From Geopsychrobacteraceae bacterium (GTDB lineage: Bacteria > Desulfobacterota > Desulfuromonadia > Desulfuromonadales > Geopsychrobacteraceae), in the NCBI GenBank assembly GCA_963668145.2, contig CAXXJU010000031.1:55989-119988 (forward strand): DNA of 64,000 bases. The letters are read 5' to 3'. The position numbers were made by a program, and so were the translations under genes. Under the pieces are notes generated by a model. It made no database searches and was not told the DNA's origin. It saw only the letters and a program-made list of their open reading frames with translations. Positions 57,425-64,000 of the stretch are shown here, one piece after another (the stretch's first letter is position 1; each line of letters opens with the position of its first letter).

Positions 57425-58138
57425 TCATTTTGTCATCTGATCCAGGAGCAAGCGGGCCTCTCGTTTGCCACTGTTTGAAAGTGCTTTCAACCCGCCGCGC
57501 GCATATACGGCAATCGCACCAAGCAGTTCGACGAGCTCTTTTGCCGAATCAGGCCCGAGGTGAAAATAAGCCCCGTTGGAAAGCCGAGCCATTTCTCGAA
57601 ATCCCTTTTCGACCCTGGTATCCTGGCCATCCTGAAAGAAAAAGCAGCGGACTCCTTTTAGCCCGAGCTCTCCCGCTTTCTGGCAGAGCACGTCGATATC
57701 CTCCTCGATGGAATCTCCGATGAAAACCAGTGCAGCGACTTTTGCCTTGGTTGTTTCTCGATTGGCGTGATCAAGGACCCTGGAGATCTGTGTCTGTCCA
57801 CCCAGGCACTGAATGCCGAGCATCAAATCGCGCAGCGCGGCAGCATTAATGACCCATTTCGAAGCTCGACATTCATCGATACCTCGAAAATACACCAGTT
57901 GAACCGACAACCCGCCTGCCTTGCCGACCGCATCGAACATGGAAGCCTGGATAGTGACAGCCTGGTCCCAGGTTGGCTGCCGGCTCATGGTTGCATCCAG
58001 AGAGAAGATCAATCTTCCGCTTTGAGCGACCGTTGCCTTAGCGGCGGCCTTGAGAAAAGCAGCTATCTCGCTGGAGGACGACTTCTCCCGAAGTGCGGGA
58101 GACTTTTTTTCAGTGGTCGCCAGTATTTTCTTTTTCAT
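57425..58138 (-). CDS. Stand-alone VWA domain protein
   Basis: LIFSLDATMSR MIDAS-like motif, GQTQI and VFIGD. Confidence 0.85.
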   Translation of the reverse strand: MKKKILATTEKKSPALREKSSSSEIAAFLKAAAKATVAQSGRLIFSLDATMSRQPTWDQAVTIQASMFDAVGKAGGLSVQLVYFRGIDECRASKWVINAAALRDLMLGIQCLGGQTQISRVLDHANRETTKAKVAALVFIGDSIEEDIDVLCQKAGELGLKGVRCFFFQDGQDTRVEKGFREMARLSNGAYFHLGPDSAKELVELLGAIAVYARGGLKALSNSGKREARLLLDQMTK

Positions 58139-58453
58139 AGATTGTTCCCTCTGACAAGATGGGCTTATTTTTTCCTAAGGTCATAAAAAGATGATGACTT
58201 TGCCGGTCCAAAAAGGTGTCATGATCTTATCATATTTCAGGTTTTTTCTACGACATCAACGCTTCAGGACAACTGGTGGAGGCACTACAAAATTTCCTTG
58301 ATGTCGAGTGGATGATGGTTTAGTGTGATCAAACATTGTTATTTTCGAAAGGATGTTCGTTTTAACGGCATCCTGTAAATGTAAAGTCGTGGCGCCTGTT
58401 ATTAAAGGAACTGCGGCTTTTTTTTGTTGGAAAAACAGACTGCAGGGGGGGGC

Positions 58454-58753
58454 ATGAAACTCATCGCTGAAGCTTTTCTTATCCTGTTCTTTCTTGTCAG
58501 TTTAGTCCCTTCTTCTGTTTTTGCTACAACACAGCAGTGTGTCGATGAAGATGACACTGCAAATGCGGTTCTCTTTGTTGACAAAGAGATGAATAAACCG
58601 ATCGAGATAAAACTCACGGCAATTAACCCGATTTATCAGGTCGATGAAAAACGCGGTTGCTGCTCGCATCATGGTGGTGTTGCTTACTGCGGTTCCAGTG
58701 GTTATTGGATTTGTAATGATGGGACGAGGAGTCCGACCTGCCGTTGTGATTGA
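58454..58753 (+). CDS. Small secreted Cys-rich protein
   Basis: Signal peptide and C-terminal RGCCSHHGGVAYC...ICNDGTRSPTCRC. Confidence 0.75.
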   Translation: MKLIAEAFLILFFLVSLVPSSVFATTQQCVDEDDTANAVLFVDKEMNKPIEIKLTAINPIYQVDEKRGCCSHHGGVAYCGSSGYWICNDGTRSPTCRCD

Positions 58754-59039
58754 GATTGTATATTTGCCTACTAAGAAGCTTCGGTTTTTTGTGGCCTACG
58801 GATTAGAAGTCCGTTGCTTCCCAGGTGAGGATCTATTGGCTACGTAAGCTTTCCTATCAAGTAGACAGTTAAAAGTAGAATTTTCAGCGTTCTTTGACGG
58901 CGAATTCACGCAGGAAAAAAATATGGGAAGTGTTTGAATGCATAAGTAAGAAAGCGGAAGCCTCCAACTGGCGGACGGCTCATAATGAGCGGCAGGGTCG
59001 AATAAATCGCCCCGAGTCAGACCCAGAGAGGAGGCTTCC

Positions 59040-60068
59040 ATGGAAAGTATTCACTACATCGGCTTAGACGTCCACAAGAAAACCATCGCTTTCTGTATTA
59101 AAACCCTGAGCGGAAAGAACGTTCGACAAGGGGTTGTGAACGCAGAACGAAACGCGCTACGACATTGGCTGGCGGAATTGTCTTGTCCCTGGATGGGGGC
59201 CATGGAGGCAACGCTGTTTACCGGCTGGATTTACGATTTTCTCAAGCCCCACGCCGTTGAGTTAAAAGTCGCGCACCCGGAAATGCTCAAAGCGATTACC
59301 GCGGCCAAAAAGAAGAACGACCGGGCTGATGCAGAGAAGTTGGCAGATCTTCTGCGCGTCAATCTTCTGCCGGAATGCCACATGATGTCCGAAGAGCTAC
59401 GGGAATTGCGGCGCATTCTTCGCTATCGGAACATGGTCGTTCGCACGGCAGTGCAGATGAAGAACAAAATGGCCGGGTTGATGATGGAGGTCGGCGCGAC
59501 CTACGACAAAAAACGGTTGTATGGGCGTAAATATTTCAACCAACTGATGGGGCGGGTAGACGATGTGCCCGATTCGGTCAAAGAGCTGTTACAACTGAGC
59601 CGCAGCAATCTTGAGCTGTTTACCGCCATCCAGAAGAAACTGGTTCGGACTCTTCGAGAGAATGAGCTGATTCGACGGAGGGTTGAGCTTTTGATGAGTA
59701 TTGCCGGGGTTGGAGAGATCATGGCTTTGACCTGGGTGTTGGAGATCGGTGATCCAACCCGCTTTCACTCCAGTCGGGAAGCCATCAGCTATTGCGGACT
59801 CTGCAGTGCACAACGGGAATCGGCCGGGAAAGATCAACGAGGGCCACTCTCCAAAAAACGCAACAAGCACCTGCAGACCATGCTCATTGAAGCCGCTAAG
59901 CTAGCCCCACGATGGAATATTCAACTGGCGGAATTGCATGAAAAAGAGTTGACCAAAGGCAATCGCAACCGAGCCACTTTAGCTGTTGCACGCAAGCTGG
60001 TTGAATATCTGTTGGCCGTTGATCGACGTGGTACTGCTTTTGAGGAGAGACAATCTCAGGTCGCCTGA
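59040..60068 (+). CDS. IS110-family transposase/recombinase (DEDD RuvC-like)
   Basis: YIGLDVHKK, GAMEAT, KKNDRADAEKLA, SIAGVG, YCGL..RESAG and RNRATLAVARKL motifs. Confidence 0.96.
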   Translation: MESIHYIGLDVHKKTIAFCIKTLSGKNVRQGVVNAERNALRHWLAELSCPWMGAMEATLFTGWIYDFLKPHAVELKVAHPEMLKAITAAKKKNDRADAEKLADLLRVNLLPECHMMSEELRELRRILRYRNMVVRTAVQMKNKMAGLMMEVGATYDKKRLYGRKYFNQLMGRVDDVPDSVKELLQLSRSNLELFTAIQKKLVRTLRENELIRRRVELLMSIAGVGEIMALTWVLEIGDPTRFHSSREAISYCGLCSAQRESAGKDQRGPLSKKRNKHLQTMLIEAAKLAPRWNIQLAELHEKELTKGNRNRATLAVARKLVEYLLAVDRRGTAFEERQSQVA

Positions 60069-60369
60069 GTTGAAGAAAAACAGATAATCTTTACATCAAA
60101 CGATCTTTCCGCCGGGCCTTGCGGACTAGGGACTACGTGAGCTTCGCTGCACGACATTGGGAGTGTTTCAAGGCTGGCGGGTTGGCCCAAACTCAATCTT
60201 CTGTGAAGGGATGATGTCCCGGAGACAGCACATGGATGTCTGGTCGCTGATTTAGCGGACCAAAAGAACAGATCAAAAAGATCGAAGGATGCAAGGGACA
60301 AGGAAAAACAGAGTCGCCACCGGGAGTAGGCCCGCGAGGTAAAGGGAAACCTCCGCTTTCCCCTTGACT
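60069..60369 (+). ncRNA. Candidate IS110 bridge/seek RNA in the 3' non-coding end
   Basis: About 300 nt of structured non-coding DNA containing CATGGATGTC (60231-60240, identical to the element's right end) and AGTGTTTCAAGGC (11/13 match to the left flank). Confidence 0.5.
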
Positions 60370-60528
60370 TTACTTATCATGGATGTCCCAGGTTTTCGAA
60401 CAGTTTCAACAATGGGTATCTCAACAATCGTAAATCTGGCCTCTGGAGATCTTGCTCACCAAGAGAAGGCACTCAGCGAGCATTTGGTTCATCTCCCGGA
60501 GTGGAAGCGGCTGGCTGATGGTGCCAAG

Positions 60529-60595
60529 GGCTAACCTCTCATTCCACCGGACCTGCGCGAAAAGCCGCGCAGACCGGTGAATTCAAACGTTATGC
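60529..60595 (+). other. Integron attC recombination site (67 bp)
   Basis: R'' GGCTAAC, 5-bp spacer, L'' ATTCCAC, central hairpin, L' GTGAAT, 6-bp spacer, R' GTTATGC. The extrahelical base is in the canonical position. Confidence 0.9.
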
Positions 60596-60629
60596 ACTCA
60601 GACATCGCTTGTCGTAGAAAGGATACGAA

Positions 60630-61643
60630 ATGAAGATAGATAAGATAATAAGTTTTTTAACCTATCCCGGAAAGCATGCTGAGGAGCAGCCAGAGATTAG
60701 CGGCGCTACGATTCCCAAAAAGGGAAAGCTTTTTAATATGTTGTCAGGGTTATTTGATAGTTCAGAGTCTGATTGCAACATACCGATAATATTCTTGACT
60801 GAAGATGATTCCCAAAATAATTCTGTTAGAGATGAAATTGTTCAGCTAGCTACATCAAAAAGCATCGGTGATGGCAAGATACTGGCTCAAAGATTGCAAC
60901 TTGCCACAACTGAAAAGTCCGGCATGGGTCTGATATTTTTCACAATTGGTAGTGATGGAGCCAACCATAAAATAGTAATTTCTAGATTTCCTGCAGATGA
61001 AGGTATCGTGGCCGAAAGATCCTCAAATACTCTTAAAGTAGAATTTGTAGAAGAAGTATTCTTGAAGAGCGCCTATTCGTATAAGGCAGTTATGTATCAA
61101 TTTCCAATCCCAAATCACGATCTATGGACGGGGTTTGCCGTGGACAAGCAGGTAAATCATGGTGCAAAAGAGGTTGCCGCTTATTGGATAAGTGATTTTC
61201 TTAAGTCAGACTTTCAAACAACTCCGAAGCAAGGCACTAAAAGATTGGCGATGGCATTGCGAGATGCAATATCAAGTTGTCAAGATACAAATATAAAACA
61301 TGAAATTGTATCGAGCGCGAAGCTCGCAAAAAACATTCCAAATAAAGCTATGTCAATTGAGGAGTTTTGCGACCAATTTCATTTGTCCGACGATGCCAAG
61401 GAGCATATTTGTTCTCAAGTTAAACCTGCACGCCTACTAAAGGATAAGTTTGTTTTCGATAGAGGGGAGTTTGATAAACATCTTTCTTACAAAATGGTTG
61501 AACTAGATAATGGAGCTATTCTATCGGCTCAAGCCTCGAAATTTGATGATTGTTTTGAGGCTACCAGTACCGACAACGACAATAACGTCCTATTTGTTAC
61601 CTCTGGCCGAGTAATTGATGAGAAGTTAAGGAGGTCAAAATAG
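60630..61643 (+). CDS. Hypothetical cassette protein, probable distant YejK/NdpA (NA37) nucleoid-associated family
   Basis: 337 aa. By-eye similarity to YejK as I recall it: LAQRLQLATTEKSGMGLIFF, KEVAAYWISDFL..TTPKQGTKRLAMAL, KFVFDRGEF. Confidence 0.55.
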   Translation: MKIDKIISFLTYPGKHAEEQPEISGATIPKKGKLFNMLSGLFDSSESDCNIPIIFLTEDDSQNNSVRDEIVQLATSKSIGDGKILAQRLQLATTEKSGMGLIFFTIGSDGANHKIVISRFPADEGIVAERSSNTLKVEFVEEVFLKSAYSYKAVMYQFPIPNHDLWTGFAVDKQVNHGAKEVAAYWISDFLKSDFQTTPKQGTKRLAMALRDAISSCQDTNIKHEIVSSAKLAKNIPNKAMSIEEFCDQFHLSDDAKEHICSQVKPARLLKDKFVFDRGEFDKHLSYKMVELDNGAILSAQASKFDDCFEATSTDNDNNVLFVTSGRVIDEKLRRSK

Positions 61644-61646
61644 ATA

Positions 61647-62249
61647 ATGGATATCGATGCAGAATATAGGCAGCGATGGGAGCAATACCTTAAGCCTATT
61701 GCTAACAAACTCCAAGAAAAACTTCTGGATGAGCTAAGGGGCGTGCCACGAATCGATAGGATATCTGCAAGAGCTAAAGACCCTATTAGATTCATGAATA
61801 AATCCCAGAAAACTGCAGATGGCAGACCAAAATACGATGATCCTCTAGTTCAAATACAAGATCAAATAGGCGCAAGGGTTATAGTCTTTTATGTCGATGA
61901 CGTTCTAGTTGTAGAAAAAGCGATTGAGGATTACTACAGGCATATCGAAAAGAAAGATTTGGTTCCAGAATCAGATAGTGAATTTGGATATGTAGGGAAG
62001 CATTATGTATTGAAGTTACCAGAAGATGTAATTGAAGACGAAGATGATAAAACCAAGATACCAAAATTTTTTGAACTTCAGATAAAAACGCTTTTTCAGC
62101 ATGCTTGGAGTGAAGCTAATCACGATCTCGGCTACAAGCCAGATCAGGAGCTTACGAGCCATCACCGTAGAAAGCTTGCATTCACAGCTGCTCAAGCTTG
62201 GGGTGCGGATCAAATATTTTCTGAATTGCTGAGAGATTTAGATGCATAA
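61647..62249 (+). CDS. Stand-alone RelA/SpoT-family nucleotidyltransferase (small alarmone synthetase-like)
   Basis: RAKD, IQDQIGARVI, FGYVGKHY and FELQIKTLFQHAWSEANHDLGYK. No hydrolase or regulatory domains. Confidence 0.9.
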   Translation: MDIDAEYRQRWEQYLKPIANKLQEKLLDELRGVPRIDRISARAKDPIRFMNKSQKTADGRPKYDDPLVQIQDQIGARVIVFYVDDVLVVEKAIEDYYRHIEKKDLVPESDSEFGYVGKHYVLKLPEDVIEDEDDKTKIPKFFELQIKTLFQHAWSEANHDLGYKPDQELTSHHRRKLAFTAAQAWGADQIFSELLRDLDA

Positions 62250-62261
62250 TAAGGCGCTGCA
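62244..62261 (+). other. Truncated attC left arm
   Basis: GCATAAT-AAGGC-GCTGCA overlaps the synthetase stop codon. GCATAA(T) is the complement of the upstream R' GTTATGC at 6/7 positions. Confidence 0.55.
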
Positions 62262-62269
62262 AGAAAAAG

Positions 62270-63313
62270 AAAAGGGGTCAAGTCTCGTTTTGACTTTTAA
62301 TTACTGACTGCTATGCTCTGTTCATGTCCAGACCTCTCCGAATAGAATACCCCCGGTGCCTGGTACCATGTCATGAACCGTGGCCGCCGGAAAGAAGATA
62401 TCTTTTTTGATCAGGATGATTTCCAGCTATTCCTGGAGATTCTGAAAGATACCGCGCGCATGTGGAACCTGCGTGTGGCGGCCTATTGTCTGATGTCTAA
62501 TCATTATCATCTTCTGGTACAAACAGCGGGTGGTAATCTCGGGCGTTGCCTGCGGCATCTTAATGGCGTCTATACGCAACGATTTAATCGCACGCACCGA
62601 CTTGATGGGCAGTTGTTTCGAGGTCGCTATAAGGCCGTACTTGTTGAAGATGATGAACATTTATTGCAACTGCTTCGGTATGTCCACCGTAATCCCCTTG
62701 AAGCCAAAATGGCCGAATCGCTTGAAGCATATCCGTGGAGCAGTCATTGTGCGTATCTGCCATCACGAAAGGGTTGGGAGTGGGTATTTAGGGATAAATT
62801 GCTGGCGATGTTTTCATCTTCCCCCAAAGAGGCCTTTGCTGGATATCTTCACTTTGTTGATCAGGACAACACTCCAGAAGTGCAGCATTTTTATTCTCTG
62901 AAAAACCTTCCTTCCATATTTGGGTCAGCAGGGTTTATTGATAGGATTCGCAGCCAGCTTGGTTCGTCACCTCGCTCTAAAGATGTTCCACAATCTGCAA
63001 TACTGTCTGTTGAGTTCACTGATATTGAAGCAGCTGTGTGCCGAGTTTACTGCATAACCAGGGAGCAGCTGCTGACTTCGCGGCGTGGTGAAACGAATCA
63101 ACCGAGAGATTTGGCTATGTATCTATTGCGCAAACATTCACGTAAGACTTTGGCTGAAATAGGGCAATGCTTTGAAATTGCCAATTACAGCACTGTCAGC
63201 AGCGGCATTATCCGAGCGCAGAAAGCGCTAAAAACAGATCATGTTGTGCGTAAGATCTTTGGAGATATGGAACAGTGTCTTCGCAAAAGTCAAAACGAGA
63301 CCTGACCCCTTTT
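62270..63313 (+). mobile_element. HUH (Y1/RAYT-like) transposase element bounded by 29-bp terminal inverted repeats
   Basis: AAAAGGGGTCAAGTCTCGTTTTGACTTTT (62270-62298) and AAAAGTCAAAACGAGACCTGACCCCTTTT (63285-63313) match 28/29. Confidence 0.88.
62324..63305 (+). CDS. Y1/IS200-like HUH transposase with a C-terminal DnaA-like HTH (frameshifted as sequenced in the C5 run at 62350-62354)
   Basis: MSRPLRIEYPGAWYHVMNRG after correction, AYCLMSNHYHLL (HUH), LFRGRYK, YVHRNP and YPWSS. C-terminal PRDLAMYLLRKHS..TLAEIG..F..NYSTVS. Confidence 0.9.
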
Positions 63314-64000
63314 CACGCACTGGCTCAAAGAACGCACCGATATAATGAGCAAAATCGAGGAGTAGTTTTTTTATCTCTGTGCAGACTTTTTCCCTATTGA
63401 TGTCGGAAGAAAATTGGGGGGCGATTATCTCTATTCTACCTGCCGCTGGATGCATATCTGCTCCTGGTTTTGGAACCCCTGTGGCCGTGGACAATTCTTT
63501 ATCGTGGTCCATATATGCAATCAATTTGACTATCCCGTTTTTGTGAAAGTCTCATGGAATTAATTTTGACAATATACTTCTGTCTGGGATGAGTCCGTTT
63601 CCTTTCTTCAACTTGCTAGGATTGCGCAATCCAAGCAAGTTACTTAGTTGTCGATAAAATGAGCAATGATCGTGAAATAATTCTATTGTAGCGCCCCTCT
63701 CGGAAGGGGAATGAAAAAAGGCTTAAAACTTAATTATTAACGATTCTGACAGCTTCGGGAGAAGGGACTGTTAATCGGCATTGAAAATGCCCCCCTGGGG
63801 GTGCGTTCAATATTGACCCGGATAGTTAAATAAATTTTCTCTATTTTGTTGGGCAATTGGCATCATTTTGGTTGCTTCTTGCCCCTCTTATTCGCTAAAT
63901 CGGCAAGGGGCCAGTCAGGATTCAATATGATTCCAATTCCCCCATAACAGGGCGTTGAAATACTAACCGGGCGGCGTCTCATTTTCTGTTTAGGCAGACA

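Follow-up and report, generated by a model that had tools for sequence, protein, structure and literature searches.

The window analysed here is a stretch of 64,000 nucleotides from a Geopsychrobacteraceae bacterium (assembly GCA_963668145.2, contig CAXXJU010000031.1, positions 55,989 to 119,988). It most probably contains, at positions 58931-60383, one copy of a 1,453-bp insertion sequence (IS) of the IS1111 group, IS110 family, which encodes a guide RNA in its tail. We estimate the probability of this explanation at roughly 0.87. This figure covers the whole of it, i.e. the ends, the RNA guide, its pairing with target and donor, and the insertion of a circle, as well as the preferred target, approximately GGGAG-TGT-CCCTAGT. 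A preliminary description, made from the letters alone, had placed an IS110 element at 58929-60390. The family assignment stands by Pfam and NF033542, but the IS1111-group architecture had been missed and the ends were misplaced, as four further copies or fragments in the genome and about 60 relatives give 58931-60383. The termini and their surroundings are as follows.

58917-58930, plus strand: left target half (LT) of the AAAATATGGGAAG type, part of an imperfect palindrome, resembling repetitive extragenic palindromes (REP), together with 60384-60398
58931-58933, plus strand: left copy of the TGT core, the first IS bases, always of donor type and standing before TTGAATG in nearly all relatives
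58934-58941, plus strand: right-donor segment (RD) TTGAATGC, a terminal extension nearly invariant in the family
58942-58949, plus strand: left sub-terminal inverted repeat ATAAGTAA, with an imperfect continuation to 58965 against 60345-60360
59040-60068, plus strand: transposase/recombinase gene for a 342-aa protein that combines DEDD RuvC-like and Tnp domains
60370-60377, plus strand: right sub-terminal inverted repeat TTACTTAT, conserved in relatives
60378-60383, plus strand: left-donor segment (LD) CATGGA, the last IS bases
60384-60398, plus strand: right copy of the TGT core (target-derived), then the right target half (RT) CCCAGGTTTTCG, from 60387

The ends were determined from the copies in the genome itself and from 80 related loci of other genomes, with 64-100% identity at the protein level, the hosts being mostly Desulfuromonadales, Desulfobulbales and metagenome-assembled genomes (MAGs) of other Thermodesulfobacteriota. 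Besides the window copy, the genome harbors three more copies, one of them truncated at its right end and another split into two matching pieces by a further insertion, and a solo right-end fragment. All copies agree base for base from the left-hand AGTGTTTGAATGC to the right-hand CATGGATGTCC, and their end 13-mer has no other occurrence in the genome. In nearly all relatives with readable ends a left block, TGTTTGAATG-N-ATAAGTA, and a right block, TACTTAT-CATGGATGT, are kept, and the bases outer to both blocks are variable. The 13-mer at 58929-58941 that had been read as left flank is thus mostly terminal extension, as 58931-58941 is identical in all genome copies and TGTTTGAATG recurs in nearly all relatives. 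Furthermore, contigs from other strains part from the window at exactly 58931 and at 60388/89, and in one assembly the IS is collapsed to a contig of 1,458 bp (58931-60388).

Both junctions carry the core TGT, at 58931-33 and 60384-86. A paralogous site of this genome that is free of the IS, C20:438456, reads AAATAGGGGCAG-TGT-CCCTATTTT, with a single TGT, fitting the LT-core-RT prediction. No terminal inverted repeats were found, and no target duplication beyond the short shared core, as is characteristic of the IS110 family. The other copies share the left flank AAATAGGGGnAG and right flanks of the form TGT-CC(C/T)TAGTTTT(C/T)C. Two other placements of the core, as AG or as GT shifted by one position to the left, were ruled out, since any dinucleotide can precede TGTTTG in the relatives. 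Position C43:199960 (AAATAG, a G-run and CTAGTTTTCC) was discarded as an empty site because the core is absent there, and C20:438456 was used instead. Excision at the true ends leaves a frame of 26 codons only, not the 72 of the open frame that excision had been claimed to restore, so that no gene is interrupted.

Inverted repeats of the form ATAAGTA(A) / (T)TACTTAT, conserved in the relatives, are found internal to the ends, at a distance of 11 nt on the left and 6 nt, or 9 with the core, on the right. Such sub-terminal inverted repeats (7-17 bp long in the IS1111 group) with terminal extensions constitute the architecture of this group. The left non-coding end measures 109 nt (58931-59039) and the right one 315-318 nt (60069-60383/86), the longer of the two thus lying downstream of the transposase gene. 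This gene is the sole long frame within 58929-60390, and its product matches PF01548 (N-terminal DEDD RuvC-like, E = 6e-18), PF02371 (C-terminal Tnp, E = 1.5e-20) and, with 188 bits (cut-off 140), the NCBIfam model NF033542, 'IS110 family RNA-guided transposase'. Residues D10, E56, D94, D97 and S261 are invariant in all 73 aligned relatives that cover them. S261 is aligned with the serine of the ES-G motif of ISCro4, the next residue being Ala and not Gly. A sequence comparison with the PDB picked out the transposases of ISCro4 and IS621, with weak similarity (E = 6e-7 and 3e-5). With 342 aa, the protein lies within the 330-350 aa of the IS1111 group, and the testable features of the architecture of this group are all present, the C-terminal motif excepted.

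The proposal that an RNA guide is encoded downstream of the transposase, with segments reading the own end and the target, was borne out by a comparative fold and by covariation. An alignment of the 3' non-coding region from 21 distinct relatives underlies the fold, and it was this comparative fold alone that proved informative. RNAalifold returned 44 pairs, 26 of them with compensatory changes. Paired cells amounted to 95%, vs. 40-49% when the partners were slid by 1-3 columns, and the 26 pairs changed on both sides compare with 3-7 in these slid controls; none out of 500 shuffles reached the observed pairing values. As the frequent G:U pairs would be A:C mismatches on the opposite strand, the fold belongs to the plus strand. 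From the sequence, a guide RNA would be made from that strand at approximately 60101-60284, with the following parts.

About 60101-60284, plus strand: predicted long bridge/seek RNA of approximately 184 nt, closed by stem P0 (60101-07 with 60278-84)
60108-60181, plus strand: target-binding arm of approximately 74 nt, the equivalent of the short seekRNA, with stem P1 (60108-21 with 60169-81), an internal loop and a hairpin at 60136-53 (helices 2 and 4)
60125-60133, plus strand: right-target guide (RTG) ACUAGGGAC, the reverse complement of GT+CCCTAGT, thus complementary to the top strand
60157-60168, plus strand: left-target guide (LTG) UUGGGAG, then the core UGU, then UU, these being the first two RD bases
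60182-60200, plus strand: multi-loop strand of the comparative fold
60191-60198, plus strand: candidate right-donor guide (RDG) ACUCAAUC, in the multi-loop, complementary in 6 out of 8 positions to the left-end segment GTTTGAAT
60201-60228, plus strand: stem-loop of the comparative fold
60229-60240, plus strand: second single strand of the comparative fold
60231-60240, plus strand: left-donor guide (LDG) CAUGGA+UGU, then C; identical to the right end, with C as the first base of the usual right target
60241-60262, plus strand: hairpin P5, directly 3' of LDG (helix 8, with three pairs changed on both sides and 92% of cells paired)

Stem P0, itself with compensatory changes (helix 1), joins the target and donor parts in one conserved unit. 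For comparison, the short forms of published IS1111 seekRNAs measure 82-96 nt and the long forms 148-172 nt (PMC11187229). Two TGG-plus-hairpin units had been suggested earlier, one after each putative guide segment. The hairpin TGGTCGC...GCGGACCA (60241-62) is real and covarying, but the TGG after the segment at 60162-74 belongs to the 3' strand of P1.

Hypervariability in the RNA is confined to the two strands of the P1 internal loop, which track the flanks of each relative. The 5' strand finishes with GT and the right flank in reverse complement. The 3' strand finishes with a copy of the 5-7 left-flank bases nearest the junction, and these are followed by UGUUU, which never varies; in the relatives the match to LT is right-anchored. 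RTG and LTG overlap on GT. The preliminary description had named covariation with flanks as a check, and both target guides pass it: when flanks were permuted among 43 distinct loops, the observed fit stood at z = 8.4 for RTG and z = 11.0 for LTG, with none out of 20,000 permutations as high. It had also reported no convincing right guide; RTG ACUAGGGAC at 60125-33, which covaries with the right flanks of the relatives, is such a guide. Matches of 9-10 nt between RTG and the right junction were found in L008, L010 and L011. Clear re-targeting was seen in L028, L026 and L041, in both RTG and LTG, and in L081 and L087, in RTG only. L028, at the site TCAACA-T(G/A)T-CCACTGTA, has the guides ACAGUGGAU and UCAACA, and L026 carries UUAUGAGGC for GC-CTCATAA.

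For the left half of the target, the earlier reading had rested on AGTGTTTCAAGGC. Its agreement with 58929-41 at 11 out of 13 positions holds, but the segment lies at 60162-60174 and not at about 60158-70. As a target guide it was right for GAG+UGU, which fall in LTG and core. Its UU, on the other hand, corresponds to the first two IS bases after the core, and its CAAGGC is the 3' strand of P1, pairing with GCCUUG at 60116-21. In the RNA, RTG (60125-33, matching the top strand) stands 5' of LTG (60157-66, matching the bottom strand), and the top-strand match is likewise reported to come first in every IS1111 seekRNA tested there (PMC11187229). The copies at C20 and C45, which share the right junction GTCCCTAGT, and copies in related MAGs are sited in GT-CCCTAGT. 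The site of the window copy is imperfect, LT matching in 5 out of 7 positions and RT reading GTCCC before diverging.

On the donor side, the identity of CATGGATGTC at 60231-60240 to 60378-60387 was confirmed. The 1.5 kb hold nine families of direct repeats of at least 10 nt, this one included, and taken alone it is not above chance; it acquires meaning from its conservation and covariation in the relatives. In nearly all of them LDG CAUGGAUGU (60231-39) is identical over 9-10 nt to LD with the core, and where LD has the variant CATAGATGT (end CATAGATG), LDG reads AUAGAUGU in 5 out of 5 loci. The earlier reading of CATGGATGT at 60231-39 as a guide to the right end of the element itself is thereby upheld, with L079 as the exception. 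For the left end, ACUCAAUC is a candidate right-donor guide, in which C60194 is replaced by U in all four relatives with the left end TGTTTAAATG, i.e. with A for G at that position. Two other segments were tried and rejected: CAAAC (60188-92), whose variants CTAAC and CACAC do not track the left-end variants, and TTTCAAGGC as a guide for TTTGAATGC, which is stem P1 and is unchanged in relatives with altered left ends.

In the best explanation, the 342-aa DEDD/Ser recombinase would be guided by an RNA read on the gene strand from the 318-nt 3' non-coding region. This RNA would have two parts, a stem-closed loop that binds the target and a donor-binding region in the multi-loop. The 5' strand of the target loop, RTG, would pair with the top strand of GT+CCCTAGT, and its 3' strand, LTG (GGGAG+UGU), with the bottom strand of the left half-site and core. 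The donor region would pair with the right end and core of the circularised element, where the sub-terminal inverted repeats would bracket a 17-bp donor junction, CATGGA-TGT-TTGAATGC. Recombination over the shared (T)GT would then insert the circle without target duplication. By homology, the chemistry of the exchange is presumably that of IS621.

Circle formation, which we infer, would also create a promoter, TTGACT-17-(TGn)TTGAAT, and this involves one further feature.

60344-60369, plus strand: conserved hairpin GGGAAACCUCCGCUUUCCC, then TTGACT (60364-69), candidate -35 box of the junction promoter, CTTGAC being found in nearly all relatives

At the real junction, TTGACT is separated by 17 bp from TTGAAT (58934-39), which is preceded by TGn, so that a junction promoter is plausible from the sequence. 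An earlier version of it, TTGACT-17-CATAAG, had been derived from a circle closed at 60387/58942. This junction is wrong, since 58931-58941 lies within the IS, and of that promoter only the TTGACT remains, as the spacing to CATAAG becomes 24 nt with the real junction. As to the source of the RNA, a conserved ACATA/GATAAT motif is located about 15-22 nt upstream of P0. Transcription may possibly start from an internal promoter with GATAAT (60083-88 in this copy) as its -10 box, or the RNA may be derived from the 3' untranslated region of the transposase mRNA.

The transposase gene also has a leader with a structure of its own.

58956-59039, plus strand: long-range hairpin in the consensus fold of the leader, pairing an anti-Shine-Dalgarno (anti-SD) segment GGAAGCCUCC with the Shine-Dalgarno (SD) segment GGAGGCUUCC beside the start codon

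In 29 relatives this hairpin was the only consensus structure of the 5' leader, and three of its seven pairs have compensatory changes (in 6, 3 and 7 sequences). The perfect 10-bp inverted repeat GGAAGCCTCC (58956-65) / GGAGGCTTCC (59030-39), which ends at the ATG, had been proposed to sequester the ribosome binding site; its conservation with compensatory changes supports this.

A number of points weigh against the explanation as a whole. The C-terminal motif, GLCSAQRESA (GL-S----SA), departs from the GL-P----S(T)G form, with P replaced by S and G by A, GL and Ser being retained; the GL-S----SA form recurs in all 72 aligned relatives covering these columns. In a tblastn comparison with IS5075, 98% of the query was covered at 24.9% identity, and the range for IS5075 and IS4321 was 24.9-26.4%. 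The fold of the 3' region that had been suggested as a check is supported comparatively, but the minimum free energy (MFE) of the single non-coding sequence is no better than that of shuffles (z = 0.31). An Rfam scan of 58000-61500 at E values up to 1 gave no match. The contigs of metatranscriptome X20 come from diverged relatives; they extend over the left end, a portion of the gene and the outermost right end, with none over 60100-60290, which is uninformative either way. The same applies to the contigs of three DNA runs, where no joints of a circle junction or an empty site were found. The candidate -10 box TTGAAT has no A at position 2, where one is usual. L079 breaks the rule of joint LDG/LD change. 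The right-donor guide candidate is weak, complementary in only 6 out of 8 positions and mixed in its covariation, as it is uncompensated in six relatives with the left-end segment TGTTAGAATG. Finally, for ISEc11 a short seekRNA with target matches only was sufficient for transposition (PMC11187229), and by analogy the donor guide may be dispensable here as well.

The alternative that survives best, albeit an unlikely one, builds on this last group of observations. It holds that the target arm at 60108-60181 is the sole guide, with the ends read by the protein via the sub-terminal repeats and by pairing of the same RNA to the two target halves on either side of the donor. In that case CAUGGAUGU at 60231-39 would be kept for some other purpose, e.g. 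RNA folding or the processing of the long precursor. In its favor, the 82-nt short seekRNA of ISEc11 outdid the long form in transposition, which also required donor flanks that match the target (PMC11187229). No convincing right-donor guide was found here, and RNAalifold pairs GGAU of LDG with AUCU at 60196-99 (helix 5), though helix 5 never varies. Against this stand the identity of LDG to the right end in nearly all relatives, its joint change in all five CATAGATGT lineages, and the closing of both parts by P0 as one conserved unit with compensatory changes. Moreover, in the part of Durrant et al. (PMC11208160) dealing with IS1111 elements, donor-complementary nucleotides are reported in the multi-loop. 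A two-part guide remains our preferred explanation.

The core behaves asymmetrically. In about ten loci (L009, L010, L045, L028, L074, L081, L026, L068, L072 and L087) the core at the right junction is not TGT but AGT, TAT, TGC or TGA. These variants are mostly mirrored by RTG (that of L074 is not), and the left junction, LTG and LDG stay TGT. As the varied last three junction bases (AGT, TAT, TGA, TGC) are for the most part mirrored in RTG and never in LDG, they are marked as target-derived. The bottom-strand guides bear unchanging 3' extensions, LTG-UGU-UU fitting the left junction and LDG-UGU-C the right junction. These product-matching extensions, and the confinement of variant cores to the right junction, are the only two mildly unusual points of the element. 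It is conceivable, but we consider it improbable and somewhat more so than a target arm acting alone, that the strand logic of this clade is the mirror image of that of IS621. If so, the effective crossover would lie at the 5' edge of the core, or the bottom strand would be exchanged first, with the handshake on the guides opposite to those of IS621.

The natural targets bear on another alternative, namely that the element is of the IS1111-attC type, aimed at the attC sites of integron cassettes. Such a subgroup is known (Post and Hall 2009), but the guide-specified GGGAG-TGT-CCCTAGT and all occupied sites, like the empty ones, are devoid of RYYYAAC and GTTRRRY boxes. In addition, two occupied sites and one empty site are hairpin ends of a unit with a Y1 transposase, and another occupied site is the edge of a repeat of about 170 nt, making this alternative very improbable. 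That the matches are coincidental, the 3' region being merely a conserved untranslated tail or a protein-binding DNA site without guide role, is hardly credible: the nine direct-repeat families, the ordinary MFE and the missing Rfam match are outweighed by compensatory changes in 26 out of 44 pairs, by G:U pairs possible on the plus strand only, and by variable loop segments that follow the flanks of each relative.

The occupied and empty sites at C20 and C45 are hairpins of the form AAATAGGG-GCAGTGT-CCCTATTT, which stand at both ends of units of about 720 bp (L089:41-790, i.e. G000:C20:437740-438490, and L088:3340-4085 in G000:C45). The hairpin loops are the insertion sites of the IS, and in each unit one end is occupied and the other empty. 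The C20 unit encodes a Y1 transposase (IS200-like, RAYT-like). The C45 unit is similar in sequence and looks like a decayed copy, with an open reading frame without Pfam match. The L008 copy, from a related MAG, and a further one from run X10 are found at the edge of the repeat of about 170 nt, at ...GCGCCATTCGGGAC|TGT. This repeat occurs in 82 copies in the genome, e.g. at C6:26312 and C10:204704, and contains GGGACAGTCCCGAGT, which fits the IS guides in 9 out of 10 positions for RTG and 4 out of 5 for LTG; its internal sites are never occupied by the IS across the 82 places in this genome. The targeting of REP-like palindromes is reportedly typical of the family (Tobes and Pareja).

In the right flanks of L042, L083, L036, L070, L072, L038 and L047, the target half-site is found in tandem, e.g. 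GTCCCCGGATTTC twice; these tandems look like target motifs in an array, or like traces of successive insertions and excisions. Elsewhere in the window, the ends of another element, at 62180-62330 and 63230-63400, are without the IS target motif. About 150 bp to the right of the IS, at 60531-60600, a segment with the order GGCTAAC ... CACCGGACCTGCGCG/CGCGCAGACCGGTG ... GTTATGC resembles an attC-type site, and the IS is not inside it. In the left flank, a single sigma-70-like match, TTGACG-17-AAAAAT (58894-58922), points into the IS, which is no more than in shuffles.

Incomplete copies were also observed. The solo right-end fragment (C43:196618-196721, L006:1501-1604) begins at the equivalent of 60300, and the truncated copy, 6 kb away (L002, C43:188944-190371), stops at the equivalent of 60346. 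In run X5, a contig of another organism has foreign sequence with an intact GGGAG-TGT-CCCTATTT site joined to position 60303. Just upstream of that position, the IS-internal AGGGACAAG at 60294-60302 is an inverted look-alike of the target, and recombination at such an internal pseudo-site is possible. The C45 copy is split by an IS66-family element (L091:42-2471, G000:C45:9741-12170) with TnpB_IS66 and DDE_Tnp_IS66 genes and imperfect terminal repeats of the GTAAGCG type. The IS66-family element is flanked by an 8-bp direct repeat, GTTACAAC, derived from the transposase gene.

Among known systems, ISEc11, ISPa11, ISKpn4 and ISPst6 (Siddiquee et al. 2024, PMC11187229) share with the present element the sub-terminal repeats with terminal extensions, the insertion without duplication, the short 5' end, the long 3' non-coding region and a transposase of about 340 aa. 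Also shared are a guide arm of about 75-80 nt, in which the top-strand segment comes first and the two matches overlap where insertion occurs, and an RNA that has a long form as well (about 150-185 nt); ISPa11 has a REP-type target, as here. In contrast, the present protein is distant, it has the GL-S----SA motif, its target differs, and it is known from sequence alone. The bridge RNAs predicted for ISPa11, ISAzs32 and ISCARN28 (Durrant et al. 2024, PMC11208160, Fig. 6 and Extended Data Fig. 10), with which we compared it by description, are likewise encoded in the right end, and as described there they share target guides in an internal loop, donor nucleotides in a multi-loop, and long sub-terminal inverted repeats (STIRs) flanking the donor.

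IS621 and ISCro4 of the IS110 group (PDB 8WT6 and 9T56) share the DEDD and Ser recombinase, the logic of two loops for target and donor, a short core and guides for both strands. In IS621, the RNA lies 5' of the gene, LTG precedes RTG, the core is CT, the STIRs are 2-3 bp, and the handshake bases stand beside the top-strand guides. In the present element RTG precedes LTG, and the extra bases that match the products, UU behind LTG and C behind LDG, are found 3' of the bottom-strand guides. IS5075 and IS4321, IS1111-group elements that target the inverted repeats of the Tn21 family, are alignable over their full length (98% coverage). They share the sub-terminal repeats and site-specific insertion in the ends of other mobile elements, but identity is 24.9-26.4% only and the target differs. 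The clade described here is found in Desulfuromonadales, Desulfobulbales and related MAGs, and its protein is distant from the enterobacterial IS1111 members compared here (about 25% identity to IS5075/IS4321).

Bridge or seek RNAs encoded 3' of the gene in IS1111 elements were already published in 2024 (PMC11208160, PMC11187229), and the present element is a well-supported but ordinary example of this known mechanism, not a new one. What it adds to the catalogue of RNA-guided recombinases is a naturally re-targeted clade, with more than 40 distinct target loops, each with its insertion site, and with relatives mostly from anaerobic sediment bacteria. Such guide-target pairs are useful for working out the pairing rules of the less explored IS1111 branch, i.e. 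guide length, mismatches tolerated, flexibility of the core and the need for a donor loop. For the genome itself, the boundaries of the IS are corrected, and the IS is seen to home to REP-like hairpins, including those around a Y1 transposase gene.

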